DNA from: a virus
DNA: 64,000 bases
Direction: 5' to 3' (one strand)
Virus record (IMG/VR): IMGVR_UViG_3300046786_000331
Coordinates: 1 to 64,000 of that record
The position numbers and the translations under genes are program-made. Of this stretch, positions 19,450 to 64,000 are shown in pieces. The notes beneath the pieces are model-generated. The model saw only the letters and a list, made by a program, of their open reading frames with translations. It was not told the origin of the DNA and did not search any database. The stretch's first letter is position 1, and the number at the start of each line of letters is the position of its first letter.

Positions 19450-21783
19450 ATGGAAATCACAGTAATTAAAAGAACCGGCAATAAAGAGCCGCTAACTATT
19501 GAAAAATGGCAAGCCCAGGTAGCGAAAGTATGTAAGGGCATTGCTGATGTAAGTCAAAGTATGATTGAGATCAAAGCTCAACCACACTTTTATGACGGTA
19601 TCACAACTAAAGAAATTGATGAGATTACTTTACGTGCTATCGTTGACTTGATTGACATCGAATCTAATCCAGACATAGGACACGTTAACTACCAATACGT
19701 AGCAGGCAAGCAAAGACTTAGCATGTTACGTAAAGATGTTTACGGAGATTATAATCCCCCAAGTCTGTATGACATTGTAGTGAAAAATGTCGCTACTGGT
19801 TTGTATACAGACGAGCTTCTTAAATGGTATACAAAAGAAGATTGGGATAAAATGAATGATATGCTAGAGCACGAGAAGGATGAAGAATATTCTTATGCAG
19901 CTATCGAGCAGTTGATTGAGAAGTACCTTGTTAAAAATCGCGCAACAAAGGAAATTTATGAAACTCCACAAATTAGATACATGGTTGCGGCAGCAACTGT
20001 CTTCCATAATGAGGAGCCGAATTCTGCAAGAATGCGTTACATTAAAGAATACTATCAAGCAGCATCCGATGGTTTGTTTACTCTTGCTACACCTGTGTTG
20101 GCAGGGCTCGGCACTCCTACTAAACAGTTTTCTAGTTGTGTTCTTATCCGCAGTGACGACGATTTGGATAGCATATTTGCTTCTGGAGAAATGATGGCAA
20201 AGTATGCCAGCAAACGTGCTGGCATTGGTTTAGAGATTGGACGTCTACGTTCTTTAGGCAGTCCCATCAGAGGTGGGGAAATTCAACACACAGGTATGAT
20301 CCCATTTTTAAAGAAATGGTTTGGTGACCTGCGTAGTTGCAGCCAAGGAGGTATCCGCAATGCGAGTGCGACAGTTTTTTATCCTATTTGGCATCATCAG
20401 TTTGATGATCTCATCGTACTTAAGAACAATCAAGGAACTGAGGAAACTAGGGTAAGACACATGGACTACGGTGTAGTCTTAAGTGCCTTCTTCTGGAGAA
20501 GATTTAAGAATCGTGAAGATATTACGTTCTTCGATCCCAATGAAGTGCCTGACTTGTATGAAGCATTCTACAAAGACACAGCACTATTCGAAGAACTTTA
20601 TGTAAAGTATGAGAAGCGTAAGGACTTACGTAAGAAAGTCATGAACGCTGAAGATGTTTTCAAGGGTGGTATTCTGAAGGAACGCACAGACACGGGTCGG
20701 ATATATCTTGTATTCATTGATAATGTAATGAACCAGGGTCCTTTTGATCCTGAGTATCACACGATTTATCAAAGTAACTTGTGTTGTGAGATTCTATTAC
20801 CCACACGTCCATTTAAACGATTAGACGACGATGCTGGACGCATAGCGTTGTGTACACTGGGATCTATCAACTGGGGAGCGTTCCGGAACCCAGAGGATAT
20901 GCGTAGAGCCTGTAGGATTCTACATCGTAGCCTGAATAACATCCTTGATTACCAAGACTTCTTGTCGATACAGAGTAGACTCAGTAACGATGAGATTCGC
21001 CCACTGGGCATTGGTGTTACTAATCTTGCCTACTGGCATGCCAAGCGCAGTCTAAAGTACGGTGAGAAAGATGCACTGGCAGAAGTTAAGACATGGATTG
21101 AACATCAATCATTCTATCTTACAGAGATGAGTGTTGAGCTTGCTAAAGAACGTGGCAAATGTTTGGGTAGCGATCAAACACGTTACGGACAAGGAAAGTT
21201 TCCTTGGGAATTACGTGCTGTAGGTGTCAATGAACTAACTGACTTTGCTCCTGAACTAGATTGGGAACCTCTACGTAAAGAAATGATTCAATACGGTGTA
21301 CGCAATGCTACCAATGGTGCTATTGCTCCTGTTGAAAGTTCAAGTGTTGTTATAAACAGTACCAACGGCATCGAAATGCCTATGAGCTTAATCAGCACCA
21401 AAGAATCAAAAGCAGGTAGCTTCACACAAGTTGTTCCTGAGTACAACAGGCTTAAGAACAAGTATCAGATGATGTGGGAACAAAAAGACTGTGATGGTTA
21501 CATTAAAACCGCAGCAGTGTTAGCAGCCTATGTAGATCAAAGTATTTCAACAAATACATTCTACAATCCAGCACACTTCCCGGATCGTAAAGTACCAACT
21601 ACATTAATTGCTAAAAACTTAATGATGGCACACTACTGGGGTTTGAAGACATTCTACTACAGCTTGATTAACAAAGCAGGTAGCAAACAGCAAGCCGAAC
21701 TAACACCGGAAGTACATTACAATGGCTTCCACAACGAAAGAGAATTAATCGAAGATGACGATTGCGAGGCATGCAAGTTATGA
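19450..21783 (+). CDS. nrdA: ribonucleotide reductase class Ia alpha subunit
   Basis: ATP-cone N-terminus, QFSSCVL, SNLCCEI, GLKTFYY, C-terminal CEAC. Confidence 0.97.
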   Translation: MEITVIKRTGNKEPLTIEKWQAQVAKVCKGIADVSQSMIEIKAQPHFYDGITTKEIDEITLRAIVDLIDIESNPDIGHVNYQYVAGKQRLSMLRKDVYGDYNPPSLYDIVVKNVATGLYTDELLKWYTKEDWDKMNDMLEHEKDEEYSYAAIEQLIEKYLVKNRATKEIYETPQIRYMVAAATVFHNEEPNSARMRYIKEYYQAASDGLFTLATPVLAGLGTPTKQFSSCVLIRSDDDLDSIFASGEMMAKYASKRAGIGLEIGRLRSLGSPIRGGEIQHTGMIPFLKKWFGDLRSCSQGGIRNASATVFYPIWHHQFDDLIVLKNNQGTEETRVRHMDYGVVLSAFFWRRFKNREDITFFDPNEVPDLYEAFYKDTALFEELYVKYEKRKDLRKKVMNAEDVFKGGILKERTDTGRIYLVFIDNVMNQGPFDPEYHTIYQSNLCCEILLPTRPFKRLDDDAGRIALCTLGSINWGAFRNPEDMRRACRILHRSLNNILDYQDFLSIQSRLSNDEIRPLGIGVTNLAYWHAKRSLKYGEKDALAEVKTWIEHQSFYLTEMSVELAKERGKCLGSDQTRYGQGKFPWELRAVGVNELTDFAPELDWEPLRKEMIQYGVRNATNGAIAPVESSSVVINSTNGIEMPMSLISTKESKAGSFTQVVPEYNRLKNKYQMMWEQKDCDGYIKTAAVLAAYVDQSISTNTFYNPAHFPDRKVPTTLIAKNLMMAHYWGLKTFYYSLINKAGSKQQAELTPEVHYNGFHNERELIEDDDCEACKL

Positions 21784-25793: not shown

Positions 25794-25868
25794 ATGGCAA
25801 GACGATCAGATAGAGCAAAGACACCAGTACAAGCTGCGGTTCGTAGACAACTACGTAAACGTAAGTAA
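25794..25868 (+). CDS. 24-aa Arg/Lys-rich peptide
   Basis: AAAGGAG SD; MARRSDRAKTPVQAAVRRQLRKRK. Confidence 0.5.
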   Translation: MARRSDRAKTPVQAAVRRQLRKRK

Positions 25869-26225
25869 GGAATTGTTGTAATCCCTTCAAAGCGAAGGAC
25901 TTCTGGACGCGGGTTCGACTCCCGCCAGGTCCACCATAAAGCACATTGAGCGAAAATATAACCGTTACTCCTGTTGGACACGGCATAGTACGTAGACAGT
26001 GTGTTTTATAATGGGCCTGCCATGGTTTCGACAGGGGTAGATAGTAGAGACGGCAACACGGTAGGCGATGACCGTAAATCAAGCAAATAAAGTAAATGCA
26101 AACGCAGATACATTTGACTTCAGCGCAATGAGCTTCAGCGGTAACACCGTTGGTGGCAGAGTTGCACTAGCTGCCTAAGAAACAGCAGGTCCGGGGTAGT
26201 TATACCTTGTAAACCAAAATAGCAG
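25869..26225 (+). ncRNA. ssrA: circularly permuted (two-piece) tmRNA
   Basis: Acceptor piece ends GGGTTCGACTCCCGCCAGGTCCACCA (25936); paired intervening segment 25937-26012; coding piece starts GGGCCTG...TTTCGAC (26013); G3:U70 pair; tag 26098-26178 ANADTFDFSAMSFSGNTVGGRVALAA*. Confidence 0.9.
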
Positions 26226-26250
26226 AACCCGCTTCGGCGGGTTTCTTTTT
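26225..26250 (+). terminator. intrinsic terminator
   Basis: AACCCGC-TTCG-GCGGGTT then TCTTTTT. Confidence 0.85.
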
Positions 26251-26374
26251 GGTAAAAATTGCAATCTTTTGCATCGAAGTTGTGCGTGTACGCACATGTT
26301 TTGTTAGAAAGTCCACGTATAATTGTAGAATAAACAACTAATTAGTTTATGAATCATATTATTAAAGGAAATTT

Positions 26375-35827: not shown

Positions 35828-37711
35828 ATGTCTAAGATCATCGGTATTGACCTCGGCACCACCAATTCATGCGTGGCTGTTATCGAGAATGGAATTCCCA
35901 AAGTTATTGAAAACAGCGAAGGTGCAAGAACAACACCTAGTATCGTTGCCTACGCAACAGATGAAATTCTTGTTGGCGCAAGTGCTAAACGACAAGCTGT
36001 TACCAATCCAAAAAATACTATCTATGCTGCCAAGCGTTTGATCGGTCGTAAGTTCAGCGAAAAAGCTGTACAGAAAGATATCGACTTGATGCCTTACGAT
36101 ATCATGGAAGCAAAGAACGGAGATGCATGGGTTCGCGCACAGGGCAAAGAACTAGCACCTCCACAAATTAGCGCAGAAGTTCTTCGTAAGATGAAGAAGA
36201 CTGCCGAGGACTATTTAGGACATGAAGTTACTCAAGCCGTTATCACAGTTCCTGCGTACTTTAACGACAGCCAAAGACAAGCAACTAAGGATGCTGGAAA
36301 AATCGCAGGCTTGGAAGTACTCCGTATTATTAACGAGCCTACTGCGGCAGCTCTTAGTTATGGCGTTGATAAAACTGATAAAGCTGACAGGAAGATTGCT
36401 GTTTACGACCTTGGTGGCGGTACTTTCGACGTATCGATCATTGAAATCGCGAATGTCGAAGGCGACAAACAAATCGAGGTATTGAGTACAAACGGCGATA
36501 CATTCCTAGGCGGTGAAGACTTTGATCAACGCATTATGGATTTCTTAGTTGAAGAATTCCGCAAGGATCAAGGTGTTGACTTAACTAAAGATGTTCTTGC
36601 TCTACAGCGTTTGAAAGAGGCTGCTGAAAAGGCTAAGATTGAATTGTCTAGCTCTGCACAAACAGATGTTAACTTACCTTACATCACAGCAGATGCAAGT
36701 GGTCCTAAGCACATGAACGTTAAAATTACTCGTAGCAAACTAGAACAACTAGTTGACGAGCTAATTGAACGCAGTCTTGCTCCATGCCGAACAGCTATGC
36801 AAGATGCAGGTGTTAGTGCTTCAGACATCGACGAAGTTATTCTTGTTGGTGGTATGACACGTATGCCTAAGGTACAAGAAGCAGTTGAAAAACTCTTCGG
36901 CAAAGCACCACGTAAAGACGTTAACCCAGACGAAGCAGTTGCCGTTGGTGCTGCTATTCAAGGTGATGTTCTTGGTGGTGGACGTAAAGACGTTCTATTG
37001 CTAGACGTTACTCCGTTGTCCGTTGGTATTGAAACACTTGGCGGTGTTATGAGTAAGTTGGTTCAGAAGAATACAACTATTCCTACTAAGGCTAGTCAGA
37101 CATTCTCTACAGCAGAAGACAATCAACCGGCTGTAACTATCAAAGCCTATCAAGGCGAACGTGAACTTGTTCAATACAACAAGTTGTTAGGTGAATTCAA
37201 TCTAGAAGGAATTCAACCACAACGCCGTGGACAACCACAGATTGAAGTTACCTTTGATATTGATGCTAACGGTATCATGCACGTTAGTGCCAAAGATAAA
37301 ACAACTGGTAAGGAAAACAAAATCACTATTAAGAGTGACAGTGGACTTACTAAAGAAGAAATTGATCGCATGGTGCAAGATGCTGAAGCCAACGCAGAAG
37401 CAGATCAAAAAGCACGTACCTTGATTGAAACTCGTAACCAAGCAGAAGCAATGGTTCACGAAATCAAGAAAGATAAAGAAGAGCTGAAAGACAAATTGAC
37501 TGAGACAGAAATTAGTGATGCAGACGCTGCTATTAAAGAAGTGGAAGACGCTGGCAATAATGTTGATGCAATCAAAGCAGCCATGGAAAAATTAAACACT
37601 GTAGCAGTTTCATTCGCACAGAAGAAGCAATTAAACGAACAGGCACAATCGCCTGACGTTGCACAGGATGATAATGTAGTCGACGCTACCTTTACAGAGA
37701 CGAAGGCTTAA
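35828..37711 (+). CDS. dnaK: Hsp70 chaperone DnaK
   Basis: [30 protein letters not shown] motifs. Confidence 0.98.
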
Positions 37712-59656: not shown

Positions 59657-60217
59657 GTGAAAAAGATCGACGATTTTAACGCATCCGATAGAATTGGTGT
59701 AAAACTACTCGAAAATTCAGTACATTTCCTTACCGGAGAAATTACAGAAGAAAATGTAGAAGAATGTATAAAATGGATAGTCTTTGAAAATCTAGATACA
59801 TCCAAAGAAAAAATACTAACCTTATACATTAATTCATCGGGCGGAGATCTTTATCAAGCGTTTGCTCTAATTGATATCATGCGTAATAGTAATCACTACA
59901 TACGCACAATCGGAATTGGAAACATAATGAGCGCAGCTTTTCTAATCTTCACTGCCGGTACACAGGGAGAAAGATATATAGCTGCTAACACTGGAATTAT
60001 GTGTCATCAGTTTTCCGGTGGTGTCGAAGCCAAGTATCATGATATCAAGGCTGAGATGAAAGAAAATGAACTGTTAAATAAAAAGATGGTAGACATCTTG
60101 AAAGAAGCTACAGGTTTAACACCTAGTAGAATAAAAGCAAAGTTGCTACCAGCCAGTGATGTTTATCTCACAGCGCAAGAAGCACTTGACTTTAATGTGG
60201 CGGATCATTTACTATAA
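59657..60217 (+). CDS. clpP: ClpP-like serine protease subunit
   Basis: LYINSSGG, MSAA, MCHQ, DVYLTAQEALDF motifs. Confidence 0.85.
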   Translation: MKKIDDFNASDRIGVKLLENSVHFLTGEITEENVEECIKWIVFENLDTSKEKILTLYINSSGGDLYQAFALIDIMRNSNHYIRTIGIGNIMSAAFLIFTAGTQGERYIAANTGIMCHQFSGGVEAKYHDIKAEMKENELLNKKMVDILKEATGLTPSRIKAKLLPASDVYLTAQEALDFNVADHLL

Positions 60218-60225
60218 GGTGTAGC

Positions 60226-60471
60226 ATGGAAATTGTAAGTATCAATACAAAACGCAAAGAACAATTAATAGAAGAAGAACAAAAGAAAGCAATGTTAGAA
60301 GTCTTGGATCATATGAGAAAAAGTATTGAGGCAGGACAGATAAAAGAATTTGTGGCAGCAAGTATTGACGACGATGGACTAACACAGATTCATGTAGCGG
60401 CAATGGACTTGCCAGGCAGCGTTGGGTTATTTGAGATTGGAAAACATATTCTAATCGCCGGTGATGCATAA
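60226..60471 (+). CDS. hypothetical protein
   Basis: 81-aa ORF with SD. Confidence 0.55.
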   Translation: MEIVSINTKRKEQLIEEEQKKAMLEVLDHMRKSIEAGQIKEFVAASIDDDGLTQIHVAAMDLPGSVGLFEIGKHILIAGDA

Positions 60472-60508
60472 TTTGGCAAAATTGCCACATTATCTGGTAG
60501 TTTTTTAG

Positions 60509-60699
60509 TTGACTGCTAAATAAAACTATCATACAATGAGTACATGGTGTTTAGGATTGTTGAAAAATTTATTTGCCAGAATTGCAAATAGAGGTTGACA
60601 ACAGAACTAAATAAACTTATACTTAAGACATGTTGTTAATAACTGCCGCAGATAAAAATGTAAACAGGGGTTGACAGCAAGTCAGAAAGACGTTATAAT
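60509..60699 (+). promoter_or_regulatory. three tandem sigma70 promoters (two with embedded TAAATA) heading the tRNA region
   Basis: TTGACT..TACAAT (60509), TTGACA..TATACT (60595), TTGACA..TATAAT (60671), each with a 17-bp spacer. Confidence 0.8.
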
Positions 60700-60753
60700 A
60701 ATTACATACGCTGCATGGGGCAGTGTAGTAAAAAGATTTTAAGAGAAAGCAAA

Positions 60754-60906
60754 ATGCAATCTACTAATAGACAAATTATTAATACGATAGCCAAACAGGT
60801 TGGACATATGTCCGCCGGCTGGTTAGCGATTAATAGTCTATGTTCAGATCGCACACCGGAGGGCTATTTTAGCTCAGGGTTCTTGGAGGGTAGTGGTTAC
60901 GCTTAA
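60754..60906 (+). CDS. putative attenuator leader peptide (50 aa)
   Basis: All 20 amino acids in codons 11-39; 3' end overlaps the antiterminator arm. Confidence 0.6.
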   Translation: MQSTNRQIINTIAKQVGHMSAGWLAINSLCSDRTPEGYFSSGFLEGSGYA

Positions 60907-60969
60907 TTAAGCAAACAGCTACTAAAACTTTAGGAACCCTAGGATTAAAACCCTGGGGTTTTTTGTTTT
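60876..60969 (+). terminator. mutually exclusive antiterminator (60876-60888/60928-60940) and intrinsic terminator (60935-60943/60952-60960 + U-tract)
   Basis: AGGGTTCTTGGAG pairs with CTTTAGGAACCCT; AACCCTAGG pairs with CCTGGGGTT, followed by TTTTGTTTT. Confidence 0.75.
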
Positions 60970-60982
60970 CTGGAAAGGGTAA

Positions 60983-61141
60983 ATGGATACAGAGACAAAA
61001 AAACTAAAGGAAGCTGAATGGTTTCGACAGCACGAATTGAACGATGATCAGTTAGAAAGACTAATTGAAAACAAGTTTATTAGAGCTCGTCAATATCATG
61101 AAGCGTTCTTAGCGAAAGAAAGGCAAGAAGAAATTGCCTAA
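60983..61141 (+). CDS. small hypothetical protein (52 aa)
   Basis: MDTETKKLKEAEWFRQHEL...; SD-like GGAAAGGG. Confidence 0.5.
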   Translation: MDTETKKLKEAEWFRQHELNDDQLERLIENKFIRARQYHEAFLAKERQEEIA

Positions 61142-61389
61142 TGGTAGAATAGTGTGAATAAGTGGAAACGAGGTCCACGCTCCGCACTCAAAACATGGAG
61201 CAAACGGGCGGACTAGTGGATGGCTTATCTTCTTGTAGATAAAAAAATACTAGTTATTAAAGCAAATTGGTACCCGCTACTTTTGACGTAGAACGCGGCT
61301 GCATAGCAGGACAGTTTGTTTTAATAAACACTTTCCACTTCACGCCTGAACAGCGGACGACATCATAGAGGGAAAGTGTTAACAACTAT

Positions 61390-61474
61390 GGAGTCGTAGG
61401 AAAATTGGTAACCCCAGTGGACTGTAAATCCGCCGCCTCTGGCACTGCTGGTTCAACTCCAGCCGGCTCCACCA
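61390..61474 (+). tRNA. tRNA-Tyr(GUA)
   Basis: Cloverleaf, long variable arm, anticodon loop CTGTAAA, CCA end. Confidence 0.9.
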
Positions 61475-61537
61475 TAGTTGACTTTTTACAAGTTCGGTGT
61501 TATACTACTAACACTTAGAAACTTTAGAAAGTCTAAA

Positions 61538-61732
61538 ATGCAAACACATCGAGTTTATGTTGAAGTTGGTTACTATGCAGGTGGAGGTACCGATGGTGCT
61601 TTCATTACTGAAAGTCTTAATCAATTTGAAACAACTGTAAATGCAAATACTTCAGGTGACGCTGTTCGTATTGCACAAGCACAGTTCGGTGGACAAACAC
61701 GTTGTCGCGTAACATATCGCGGCACAATTTAA
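61538..61732 (+). CDS. hypothetical protein within the tRNA array
   Basis: MQTHRVYVEV...; own sigma70 promoter at 61478. Confidence 0.55.
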   Translation: MQTHRVYVEVGYYAGGGTDGAFITESLNQFETTVNANTSGDAVRIAQAQFGGQTRCRVTYRGTI

Positions 61733-61734
61733 TT

Positions 61735-61810
61735 GCTTCGTTAGCTCAATTGGGAGAGCGCGACACTGTCACTGTCGAGGTAAGGGGATCGAAACCCCTA
61801 CGAGGCGCCA
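61735..61810 (+). tRNA. tRNA-Asp(GUC)
   Basis: CGACA-CTGTCAC-TGTCG arm, CCA end. Confidence 0.9.
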
Positions 61811-61815
61811 AACAT

Positions 61816-61892
61816 GGGTCGTTAGTTCCAATTGGCAGAACGTTGGTCTCCAAAACCAAATGTTGGGCGTTCGAATCGCTCACGGCCCGCCA
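61816..61892 (+). tRNA. tRNA-Trp(CCA)
   Basis: TTGGT-CTCCAAA-ACCAA arm, CCA end. Confidence 0.9.
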
Positions 61893-61898
61893 ACTTAT

Positions 61899-61973
61899 GC
61901 ACGGTTCGTCTATCGGTCAGGACATTAGGTTTTCATCCTAAGAAGAGGGGTTCGATTCCCCTACCGTGTTCCA
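61899..61973 (+). tRNA. tRNA-Glu(UUC)
   Basis: TTAGG-TTTTCAT-CCTAA arm, CCA end. Confidence 0.88.
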
Positions 61974-61978
61974 GTTAT

Positions 61979-62056
61979 GCACAGGTGGCAGAGTGGCCCA
62001 ATGCAACGGATTGCAAATCCGTAAAGCCGTGAGTTCGAATCTCACCCTGTGCTCCA
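61979..62056 (+). tRNA. tRNA-Cys(GCA)
   Basis: ACGGA-TTGCAAA-TCCGT arm, U73, CCA end. Confidence 0.9.
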
Positions 62057-62162
62057 AGTTAGATCTGGCAGGGGTAAACCTACATAGTATGGTTGACGGG
62101 ATGGAAGGTCCCTTAGCGAACTACACGCACCACACGCCCTGCGGAATGTAGTAACAATTTAT

Positions 62163-62239
62163 ACCCCAGTGACGCAACTGGTAGACGTGCTTCTCTCAAA
62201 AGGAAGATGCTGAAGGTTCAAATCCTTCCTGGGGTACCA
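62163..62239 (+). tRNA. tRNA-Leu(CAA), short variable arm
   Basis: CTTCT-CTCAAAA-GGAAG arm, A73, CCA end. Confidence 0.8.
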
Positions 62240-62244
62240 ATAAT

Positions 62245-62336
62245 GGAAAGTAATGCAGCTGGGATGGTCCGGCGACTAGCCTTGAAAACTAGGTTCTCAG
62301 AAATGGGATGGGGTTCGACTCCTCTGCTTTCCGCCA
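62245..62336 (+). tRNA. tRNA-Ser(UGA)
   Basis: CTTGAAA loop, long variable arm, G73, CCA end. Confidence 0.85.
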
Positions 62337-62340
62337 AATT

Positions 62341-62415
62341 TGCCGTGTAGCTCAGAGGAAGAGCACTCGCTTGATAAGCGATAGGTCGACATTTCGAAAT
62401 TGTCCATGGCAACCA
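62341..62415 (+). tRNA. tRNA-Ile(GAU)
   Basis: TCGC-TTGATAA-GCGA arm, CCA end. Confidence 0.85.
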
Positions 62416-62642
62416 AGTTTTGTTAAAGTGTCAGCAAGAGAATGTCACGCTATAAAGGTTTCTTCGAAGGACTGATATAGTTAAAGGGGACGGGTTCAAC
62501 TCCCGGCTGCTCGGAAGAGCGGTGCAGATTGGTTGCTAACTGGACTAGTATCCCAAGTGACGTACCGAGTCCTAGCCGGCTTTATATACATAGGTGAATG
62601 GTTGCTATAACGATGGGGCAACATCTTTAACAAATTTAATTT

Positions 62643-62716
62643 CTGGGTGTAGGATAATGGTAGTCGACGAAGCTTGGATCTTCGAGGCGCAGGTTCGATT
62701 CCTGCCACCCAGACCA
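62643..62716 (+). tRNA. tRNA-Pro(UGG)
   Basis: CGAAG-CTTGGAT-CTTCG arm, C1:G72, CCA end. Confidence 0.88.
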
Positions 62717-62919
62717 TTTATGTCATAGTGTAATGAGAATGCACGGGATCGCCATTATAAAATCCTTCGGGTGATGGAACAAGGTTCAGGTACGGTAAGA
62801 ACCCGTAACGACAAAATTTTCTGCAGAAAGAACAGAGACACGGTGGTCCTAAAGGTGTGGGGACTATAAAAGCCGACAAACGTCTGGGGTACAACTCCAT
62901 ACGCACCGACAAATTCTAT

Positions 62920-62998
62920 TCCGTGAAATCCAAGCATGGTGCAAGGACCTGACTGTTAATCAGTGATTAGGTGAGTTCGATCCTCACACACGGAGCCA
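62920..62998 (+). tRNA. tRNA-Asn(GUU)
   Basis: CTGA-CTGTTAA-TCAG arm, G73, CCA end. Confidence 0.8.
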
Positions 62999-63091
62999 TT
63001 AATAAAGCTCATCAGAACTTCTGTGGGCATCCGCTTCCTCACATAGTGCAGGAGGCGCAACGGTTCGATTCCGCTGATGTGTTTTATTAAT

Positions 63092-63166
63092 GGGGGGAGC
63101 CGAGGGCGGCGGCGTTGCTTTGCAAGCATCGTGACTACAAGGGTTCGATACCCTGGTCCTCCACCA
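63092..63166 (+). tRNA. tRNA-Ala(UGC), atypical D-arm
   Basis: G3:U70 pair, TTTGCAA loop, CCA end. Confidence 0.7.
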
Positions 63167-63171
63167 AGAAT

Positions 63172-63248
63172 GTCTGGGTCTGACATGGTGTTTCTGAAGA
63201 GGTTGATCACTCTGAGGAGAATGTGGTTCGATACCACGCCCGGCGCCA
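63172..63248 (+). ncRNA. atypical tRNA-like RNA (8-nt anticodon-type loop GTTGATCA)
   Basis: T-arm GTGG-TTCGATA-CCAC and 3' GCCA; irregular acceptor and D arms. Confidence 0.45.
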
Positions 63249-63402
63249 ACTTTCGAAGATAGACGTACTGCTTGAGTCCCAAGTAACTGGCGCTACGAGC
63301 GCATTGGTTTGACAGTGAAGTATGGTTTGTTTAAACTCGCGGCTACGAGACAATCCAGTGAGTCCTCCCAGGAGGATAGTTGGGCACTTCGAAAACCTAT
63401 AT

Positions 63403-63477
63403 ACTCCGGTAGTTTACTGGCTAGAACGCTGCCCTTTCAAGGCGGAGAAGAGGGATCGATACCCTTTCGGAGTACCA
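63403..63477 (+). tRNA. tRNA-Glu(UUC), second divergent copy
   Basis: CTGCC-CTTTCAA-GGCGG arm, CCA end. Confidence 0.85.
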
Positions 63478-63590
63478 CAATTTTTAGTTCAAAGGAGAAC
63501 GATATGAAACGTGCTAAACGTTAGTGTCGCTTCTAGATCCCCCGTATGGTCTAGTTGTGACACGTTAATAAACAATTAATACGAACACAA

Positions 63591-63664
63591 CCTTCGCAAA
63601 CATTAAGGTGATGTAACTGGCTCTTAACCAGTAAAACTAGGATCGTTACCTAGGCGGAGGACCA
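63591..63664 (+). tRNA. tRNA-Lys(CUU)
   Basis: ACTGG-CTCTTAA-CCAGT arm, CCA end; T-loop ATCGTTA. Confidence 0.82.
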
Positions 63665-63667
63665 TAT

Positions 63668-63741
63668 GGGGGTGAAACTTTAAGGTGAAGTAACTGGCTT
63701 TTAACCAGTAAAACTCGGATCGTTCCCGAGCACCCCTACCA
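63668..63741 (+). tRNA. tRNA-Lys(UUU)
   Basis: ACTGG-CTTTTAA-CCAGT arm, CCA end; T-loop ATCGTTC. Confidence 0.85.
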
Positions 63742-63827
63742 TATGCAAACACATTCGAAGACCTATACATAGTATTAGGAAACGGATAGGCACGCCGGAG
63801 GACCTGGGCCTGAGTGTGTTTACATAT

Positions 63828-63992
63828 GGTTAATGTTATCTGCAGGTAACATCCATATTGGGGCGTAATTAACCTCAAGAACTCGTAGTCGTCTAATGGT
63901 AGGATACGTGCGTAGCGTGATGGTTGTTCGAATCGACCCTACAATGAGTTTGCAACAAACAAGTCGGCATGTGTGTCCACCGTGCATTAACC
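63828..63992 (+). ncRNA. RNA with an embedded tRNA-like module (Y-RNA-like architecture)
   Basis: Closed by GGTTAATG/CATTAACC; internal D-arm, 3-bp anticodon stem and T-arm GGTTG-TTCGAAT-CGACC, no CCA. Confidence 0.45.
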
Positions 63993-64000
63993 GACGATAA

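Follow-up and report, generated by a model that had tools for sequence, protein, structure and literature searches.

What controls the large sets of tRNA genes that phages carry? To our knowledge, the purpose and control of these sets are largely unknown, and the head of the tRNA array of a giant (jumbo) phage from a lake offers a place to look for an answer. We analyzed the first 64 kb of an IMG/VR record (the window, a single stretch of 64,000 nucleotides); the full record has 145,727 bases and is estimated to be 41% complete, and the contigs of its relatives, which reach 342–358 kb, identify the source as a jumbo phage. The 34 tRNA genes of the phage cover all 20 amino acids. The original prediction held that a leader peptide encoded upstream of the array acts as a general sensor of tRNA depletion, with a ribosome stalled on almost any codon switching on the genes downstream. 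Comparative tests across relatives of the phage argue for such a sensor, whereas the direction of the switch and its specific trigger are parts of the claim that we infer.

The three tandem promoters, the 50-codon ORF and the U-tailed terminator named in the prediction are all present (Table 1). Promoter 3 is kept in all 20 of the first relatives. At 83 of the 87 loci among the matches listed, the leader has strong promoters on its 5′ side; 72 loci have two to four of them in tandem, and 65 have a site matching the consensus at 12 of 12 positions. The leader mRNA of some family members may be leaderless or nearly so, as the −10 hexamer lies only ∼7–13 nt 5′ of the ATG in several of them (L128, L152, L154, L086 and others). 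The terminator, called at 60932–60963, has a stem of 9–12 pairs followed by a U tract, and its motif occurs a single time in the 145.7-kb record. Two genes 5′ of the leader, we noted a ClpP-family protease gene (59657–60217, + strand; Pfam, 112 bits), whose PHROGs match is to head maturation proteases.

Table 1. Features at the head of the tRNA array (positions in the window unless stated otherwise)
Feature	Position	Strand	Basis
Promoter 1, TTGACT-17-TACAAT, first of three in tandem	60509..60537	+	sigma70-like, 10/12 consensus positions
Promoter 2, TTGACA-17-TATACT	60595..60623	+	sigma70-like, 11/12 consensus positions
Promoter 3, TTGACA-17-TATAAT, perfect consensus	60671..60699	+	sigma70-like, 12/12
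Small hairpin at the 5′ end of the promoter-3 transcript	60708..60726	+	arms vary among relatives and are complementary by eye
Purine-rich stretch before the leader ATG	60741-60749	+	sequence; likewise seen in relatives
Leader ORF, 50 codons and TAA	60754..60906	+	conserved ATG column, open frame, all 20 amino acids
Sampling segment, codons 14–39, 26 residues with all 20 amino acids	60793..60870	+	minimal span
Conserved block GATCGCACACCGGAG (Asp-Arg-Thr-Pro-Glu), also written GATCGYACACCRGAG	60847..60861	+	nucleotide-level conservation
Antiterminator hairpin; base helix 60876–60882 with 60934–60940	60876..60940	+	fold, covariation
Stop codon of the leader, at the antiterminator apex	60904-60906	+	fold
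Intrinsic terminator; stem 60935–60943 with 60952–60960, 8-nt loop, U tract	about 60932-60970	+	
First gene 3′ of the terminator, conserved ∼52-aa protein, 52-codon ORF	60983..61141	+	
tRNA-Tyr, first of 34 tRNA genes	61390..61474	+	array spans 61390–75263 of the record

The host of the phage appears to be betaproteobacterial. The window holds a permuted two-piece tmRNA of the betaproteobacterial type (25830–26269, + strand; RF01850, 125.7 bits; RF04321, 144.3 bits), for which ARAGORN reports a tag peptide with an ALAA end; together with the tRNA set, it suggests that the phage invests heavily in translation and has a host of this class. A contig of 6,223 bases in a metagenome-assembled genome bin of Polynucleobacter sp. 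(L168; JBBAKF010000113.1) carries the same phage segment, comprising a ClpP-like gene, the terminator and a 48-aa leader in which all 20 amino acids occur. This contig is probably phage DNA that went into the bin of its host, hence a hint to the host's identity. Elsewhere in the window, the phage encodes a full-length Hsp70/DnaK (35828–37711, + strand; 854 bits), a protein with a CHASE2 sensor domain fused to an adenylate/guanylate cyclase domain (45784–47838, + strand), and a class I ribonucleotide reductase (19450–21783).

The striking property of the leader is its composition. As predicted, codons 11–39 encode all 20 amino acids; runs of one amino acid are absent, and rare residues occur once each. 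Not one of the 33,366 windows of 29 aa in the long ORFs of the phage holds a complete set (random iid expectation 7e-5), and 2.7% of 50-residue windows do (random expectation 2.6%). A single case picked by eye from 64 kb could be luck, so the test had to use relatives. In viral contigs, the leader peptide as a query retrieved seven loci and the neighboring 81-aa gene 34 loci. These two queries gave 20 distinct homologous segments, of which 19 had an ORF with all 20 amino acids.

So that the peptide would not bias the selection, we used the terminator motif alone as bait. This retrieved at least 119 stretches from viral contigs, and the element recurs in more than 100 related IMG/VR phage contigs. 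At least 109 distinct segments have an ATG-initiated ORF of 30–53 codons that ends 24–38 nt 5′ of the terminator. Among the matches listed, 92 of the 107 distinct leader peptides (30–53 aa) contain all 20 amino acids, 12 contain 19, and two contain 18; the last, with 13, is probably a mis-called ORF. The family's own composition, which is already even, would yield only ∼3.5 complete sets in 107. The property is also specific to the frame: among the matches listed, each of the other two frames of the same DNA gives a complete set in one of 108 members and has 3–4.5 stops, whereas the leader frame is open in all 108.

Completeness is kept while the peptide itself drifts, as the original prediction anticipated. 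Among 20 representatives with <40% pairwise identity (drawn from the matches listed), 14 have all 20 amino acids and six have 19; simulated neutral replacement at 60% of positions kept the set complete in 5.5% of cases. A single Trp is present in 90% of leaders and a single Cys in 87%, and each is missing from 1.9% (among the matches listed); their means are near 1.1, at which random scatter would leave about one-third of leaders without them. The rare residues also move. Among 39 representatives of the matches listed, the single Cys falls in 19 different alignment columns, and His, Tyr, Phe and Glu each occupy nine; only Trp is fixed. The minimal span that holds all 20 amino acids has a median of 31 residues and a minimum of 25 among the matches listed. 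An independent sample, obtained by a profile search of a large protein collection, added 30 new peptides, of which 22 have all 20 amino acids and eight have 19. The only reading we found for these data is that a complete amino-acid set in the leader frame is under selection; as a comparative signal of selection acting on peptide composition and not on sequence, it is unusually clean. We also considered the leader as a noncoding RNA, which is ruled out by the open frame, by indels in multiples of three in the conserved part and by the frame-specific amino-acid property.

We then asked how this ORF sits on the RNA, using an alignment of 108 distinct segments from the matches listed, on which named structures were tested. 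The long hairpin of the original prediction forms in the minimum-free-energy fold (z = −3.9 vs. dinucleotide shuffles); of the 13-bp helix described there, only the 7-bp base is conserved across the family. This base helix (RGGGTCC with GGACCCY; alignment columns 214–220 with 293–299) is paired in 98% of cells of the 108 segments and has three covarying pairs, and its score was reached by none of 500 shuffles and by no slid register. At the pair that includes column 299, the counts were GC 57, AU 40 and GU 8 among the matches listed. Among the matches listed, mean free energies in the family are −23.1 kcal/mol for the antiterminator and −14.6 kcal/mol for the terminator, and the antiterminator has a mean z-score of −6.0, with 99% of members below −2. 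RNAalifold on the full alignment returned the terminator only; the antiterminator came from the named-structure test. The terminator is 99.8% paired in the family among the matches listed, a figure that proves nothing because the terminator was the search bait.

The two helices compete for the same strand. The 3′ arm of the hairpin overlaps the terminator stem (60935–60960) as had been claimed, the shared part being 60935–60940, which lies within the 5′ arm of the terminator. The motif ACCCY is thus common to both helices, making them mutually exclusive. Column 299 (C or U) is part of both: in the terminator it pairs with a constant G (as G-C or G-U), and its partner in the antiterminator alternates between G and A.

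The ORF is placed on this hairpin with little slack. Among the matches listed, it reads through the 5′ arm of the antiterminator in 108 of 108 members, with a median of 15 nt (interquartile range 14–17 nt) from the end of the arm to the stop codon and of 25 nt (interquartile range 24–26 nt) from the stop codon to the 3′ arm. The stop codon either tops the 5′ strand of the hairpin or falls at the margin of the loop. In 84 of the 108 members among the matches listed, all 20 amino acids have been encoded by the time the arm begins, usually with 6–8 nt to spare, and the sampling and structural parts of the ORF are therefore separate. The last sampled residue, usually Glu, is only those 6–8 nt 5′ of the arm, and a stall there may mask it, a caveat that the original prediction had itself raised and that these distances bear out.

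No supported trp-style segment 1, in the form of a covarying upstream partner of the 5′ arm, was found in the family folds or alignment. The 5′ arm was paired upstream over at least 5 nt in 28 of 108 folds among the matches listed, with an inconsistent partner. Without such a partner, an untranslated transcript would be expected to read through, unlike in classical attenuators. Two further candidate structures were rejected: a GCGAT/ATCGC helix, which had uncompensated changes and no consistent register, and a hairpin within the ORF at codons 17–20, which seemed by eye to covary but showed no consistent register or compensation.

Codon choice in the leader is also diverse. The predicted 28 different codons among the 30 of codons 11–40 are there, and codon diversity exceeds expectation: the leader has 38 distinct codons out of 50, where its amino acids and the codon usage of the phage predict 33.1 (p = 0.012), and the family mean is 35.8 against 32.4 among the matches listed. 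Its codons are also rarer than expected (p = 0.012). GAG makes up 91% of Glu codons in leaders among the matches listed, compared with 20% in the genes of the phage, and GAT makes up 90% of the codons for its amino acid in the same leaders. We give the use of rare codons little weight because it is partly forced by the GC-rich arms. The block at 60847–60861 is conserved across the leader family, synonymous positions included, and no covarying partner for it was found in the family alignment; it is a candidate for a pause signal, an arrest motif in the peptide or a binding site.

What does the element control? A same-strand tRNA array lies 3′ of the terminator at 87 loci among the matches listed, and only two of the loci with enough sequence beyond the terminator lack one; the distance from the terminator to the first tRNA is 200–1,700 nt (median 457 nt). 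In 13 more distant relatives, the 81-aa gene has no tRNAs after it, and no leader-like ORF was found there either; the contig of one such relative has a leader elsewhere, adjoining tRNAs. The leader thus travels with the array and not with the upstream neighbor gene, which agrees with its predicted position upstream of a tRNA array.

The original prediction had warned that an internal promoter at 61478 could bypass control of later tRNAs. We found promoter-like sites inside the array at 61478, 63309, 65062, 65451 and 67887, which make control of the whole array partial at best; the genes most directly under the switch are probably the small gene and the promoter-proximal tRNAs. The site at 61478 matches 10 of 12 positions and has an extended −10 TG; after it come a 64-codon ORF and, just before tRNA-Asp, a weak hairpin (61478–61732, + strand), and that ORF does not hold a complete set of 20 amino acids. 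Farther along, an 88-nt tRNA-like stretch (62245–62332, + strand) scores 32 bits on the tRNA-Sec model, below threshold, and was not called by ARAGORN; it could be a tRNA with a long arm, for example Ser. UCN (Ser) is the one codon family for which the phage has no called tRNA.

We consider it likely, on the strength of these sequence comparisons, that the locus is a ribosome-mediated transcription attenuator whose leader peptide samples all 20 aminoacyl-tRNA pools. In such a device, the tandem strong sigma70 promoters would initiate the transcript, and a ribosome would start on the leader of ∼47 codons. If decoding were smooth, the ribosome would trail RNA polymerase, read the 5′ strand of the antiterminator and halt at the apex, melting exactly the 5′ half of the hairpin; at the stop codon, it would be too far 5′ to touch the terminator. 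With the antiterminator blocked, ACCCY would be free, the terminator would fold, and transcription would end at ∼60965. A delay at any of the first ∼39 codons would instead let the hairpin form once transcribed and capture the 5′ arm of the terminator, and the polymerase would continue into the conserved small gene and the tRNA array. Because the leader includes every amino acid, with the rare ones encoded about once, running short of any one charged tRNA could flip the switch.

The position of the ribosome would decide the fold in this scheme, and the direction, from stalling to read-through, is suggested by the geometry and by the precedent of whiB7 described below, since a ribosome can disrupt the antiterminator and cannot reach the terminator. 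A ribosome on the stop codon covers the apex, and the 7-nt arm lies just behind its footprint; sterics and energetics suggest that the arm would stay blocked while the ribosome waits there.

As for the physiological trigger, which may be something such as an anticodon nuclease, we favor tRNA depletion or supply-and-demand feedback over starvation, because extra tRNA would help against tRNA loss and not against a lack of amino acids. Whether the phage uses the element to monitor the whole aminoacyl-tRNA pool, so that the loss of any one host tRNA switches on the complete tRNA set of the phage, seems to us evenly balanced. Under that interpretation, tRNA could be lost through an anticodon nuclease, another tRNA-targeting defense or the decay of host tRNA during infection. 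If it is true, the element would be both a counter-defense trigger and a supply-and-demand regulator of viral tRNAs, and it could tie phage tRNA arrays to the tRNA-cleaving immune systems of bacteria.

The switch could also be real and have the ∼52-aa protein after the terminator as its main regulated product, with the tRNAs mostly transcribed from their own internal promoters. Among the matches listed, a homologous ORF begins 15–24 nt past the terminator stem in 68 of 102 loci, and a strong promoter-like site precedes the first tRNA in 27 of 87 loci; the sites inside the array of this phage fit the same idea. However, the other 60 of those 87 loci lack a strong promoter in the stretch from the terminator to the first tRNA, this phage likewise has no promoter-like site between the terminator and tRNA-Tyr, and about a quarter of loci have no small ORF at that position, with tRNAs following nonetheless. 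We therefore regard a switch devoted mainly to the small protein as unlikely, noting that it is compatible with the attenuator explanation and not exclusive of it. The protein belongs to a family of small helical proteins of ∼50–58 aa with a shared motif like EQLxKLIxDKFERAR; it had no Pfam or PHROGs match, and the ESM Atlas gave nothing usable.

Two readings dispense with the ribosome as a sensor. The leader could simply be a gene for a small protein, served by its own promoters and terminator, the peptide acting in trans and the hairpin shaping the 3′ end of the mRNA. Gene callers do annotate it as a hypothetical protein, and the alignment keeps one Trp position and an Asn-Asp-Arg-Thr-Pro-Glu-like block. 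Yet no protein function accounts for a complete set within 25–31 residues whose rare members move about, the representatives fall below 40% identity with many indels, covariation links the 3′ part of the ORF to the terminator arm, and searches of Pfam and PHROGs found no family match for the leader; an ordinary gene is thus very improbable. Alternatively, a protein or RNA (for example, a tRNA) acting in trans could set the hairpins and translation of the ORF be incidental, and the block conserved down to its synonymous sites could be the binding site. This would leave unexplained both the frame-specific complete amino-acid set and the fixed stop codon at the apex of the hairpin. Nor does the leader match a known RNA family: Rfam returned none for it, at a permissive threshold over 60300–64000 and at gathering thresholds over the whole window, and the sole hit was a chance-level one on the terminator. 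We give a trans-acting factor hardly any credence and retain the ribosome-mediated attenuator as the preferred explanation.

We found no description in the literature of a leader with all 20 amino acids before phage tRNAs. Searches of 50,697 records of cultured phages (blastn and tblastn) returned matches to tRNA-Tyr only and no homolog of the leader, and phiHQ, an unrelated phiKZ-like jumbo phage, has scattered tRNAs and no comparable array head.

The class of mechanism, on the other hand, is known. Classical attenuators (trp, his, phe, leu, thr and ilv; Kolter and Yanofsky 1982) consist of a short translated leader, a terminator and an overlapping antiterminator, and the position of the ribosome decides between the two structures. 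Their leaders, with runs of one or a few cognate codons, regulate the biosynthesis of that amino acid, and pairing of segment 1 with segment 2 causes an untranslated RNA to terminate. The phage element resembles them in having a translated leader, a terminator, an overlapping antiterminator and an ORF that overlaps the antiterminator 5′ strand. In contrast to the classical leaders, that of the phage has no runs, holds all 20 amino acids and has no supported segment 1, and its ORF spans the entire antiterminator 5′ strand. It would extend attenuation from one sensed amino acid to any of the 20. Sensors of uncharged tRNA are also known outside attenuation: the T-box reads one tRNA by direct RNA pairing, and RelA and GCN2 are protein sensors that respond to any amino acid. 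Like the T-box, RelA and GCN2–GCN4, the phage element would sense uncharged tRNA; unlike them, it would do so through the translation of one short ORF.

Regulation of a mobile tRNA array also has a parallel. The trn operon of Anabaena is horizontally mobile, kept low, and turned on when translation is impaired (PMC8421152). Its control lies at the promoter, where direct repeats are thought to bind a repressor, and these repeats were called the first indication of differential regulation of tRNA genes (PMC8421152); the terms "leader" and "attenuat..." are absent from that description of the operon. The phage element offers a concrete control circuit for a viral tRNA array and, as a compact part of ∼260 nt, could act as a natural reporter of translation stress.

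The nearest precedent is the upstream ORF (uORF) of whiB7/wblC in mycobacteria and other Actinobacteria, where, in the account given by PMC10274678 (citing Lee, Lee and Roe 2022), efficient translation leads to a rho-independent terminator and stalling to an antiterminator. whiB7 is activated via the pathways of 18 of the 20 amino acids, and a single Trp codon in its uORF confers a response to Trp starvation that is largely lost in a Trp-less variant (PMC10274678); the tRNA-cleaving toxin VapC5 also induces it (PMC10287673). As in whiB7, the phage element has a longer, compositionally diverse uORF whose composition would set the shortages that are sensed, a functional consequence known for whiB7 only. 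The amino acids held by whiB7 uORFs vary (that of M. tuberculosis lacks several and that of M. smegmatis lacks Cys), and the uORF is enriched in Ala, whereas in the phage leaders completeness itself is conserved, with rare residues occurring about once in 25–31 residues. The setting differs as well: whiB7 regulates a cellular transcription factor, and the phage element, which lies before a small gene and a phage tRNA array and not upstream of a WhiB-family regulator in Actinobacteria, shows no sequence relationship to it that we could see. Broad sensing by a diverse uORF thus has its precedent in whiB7, and what is new here is the enforced completeness of the amino-acid set, its compactness (25–31 residues), a viral tRNA array as the target and the phage setting.
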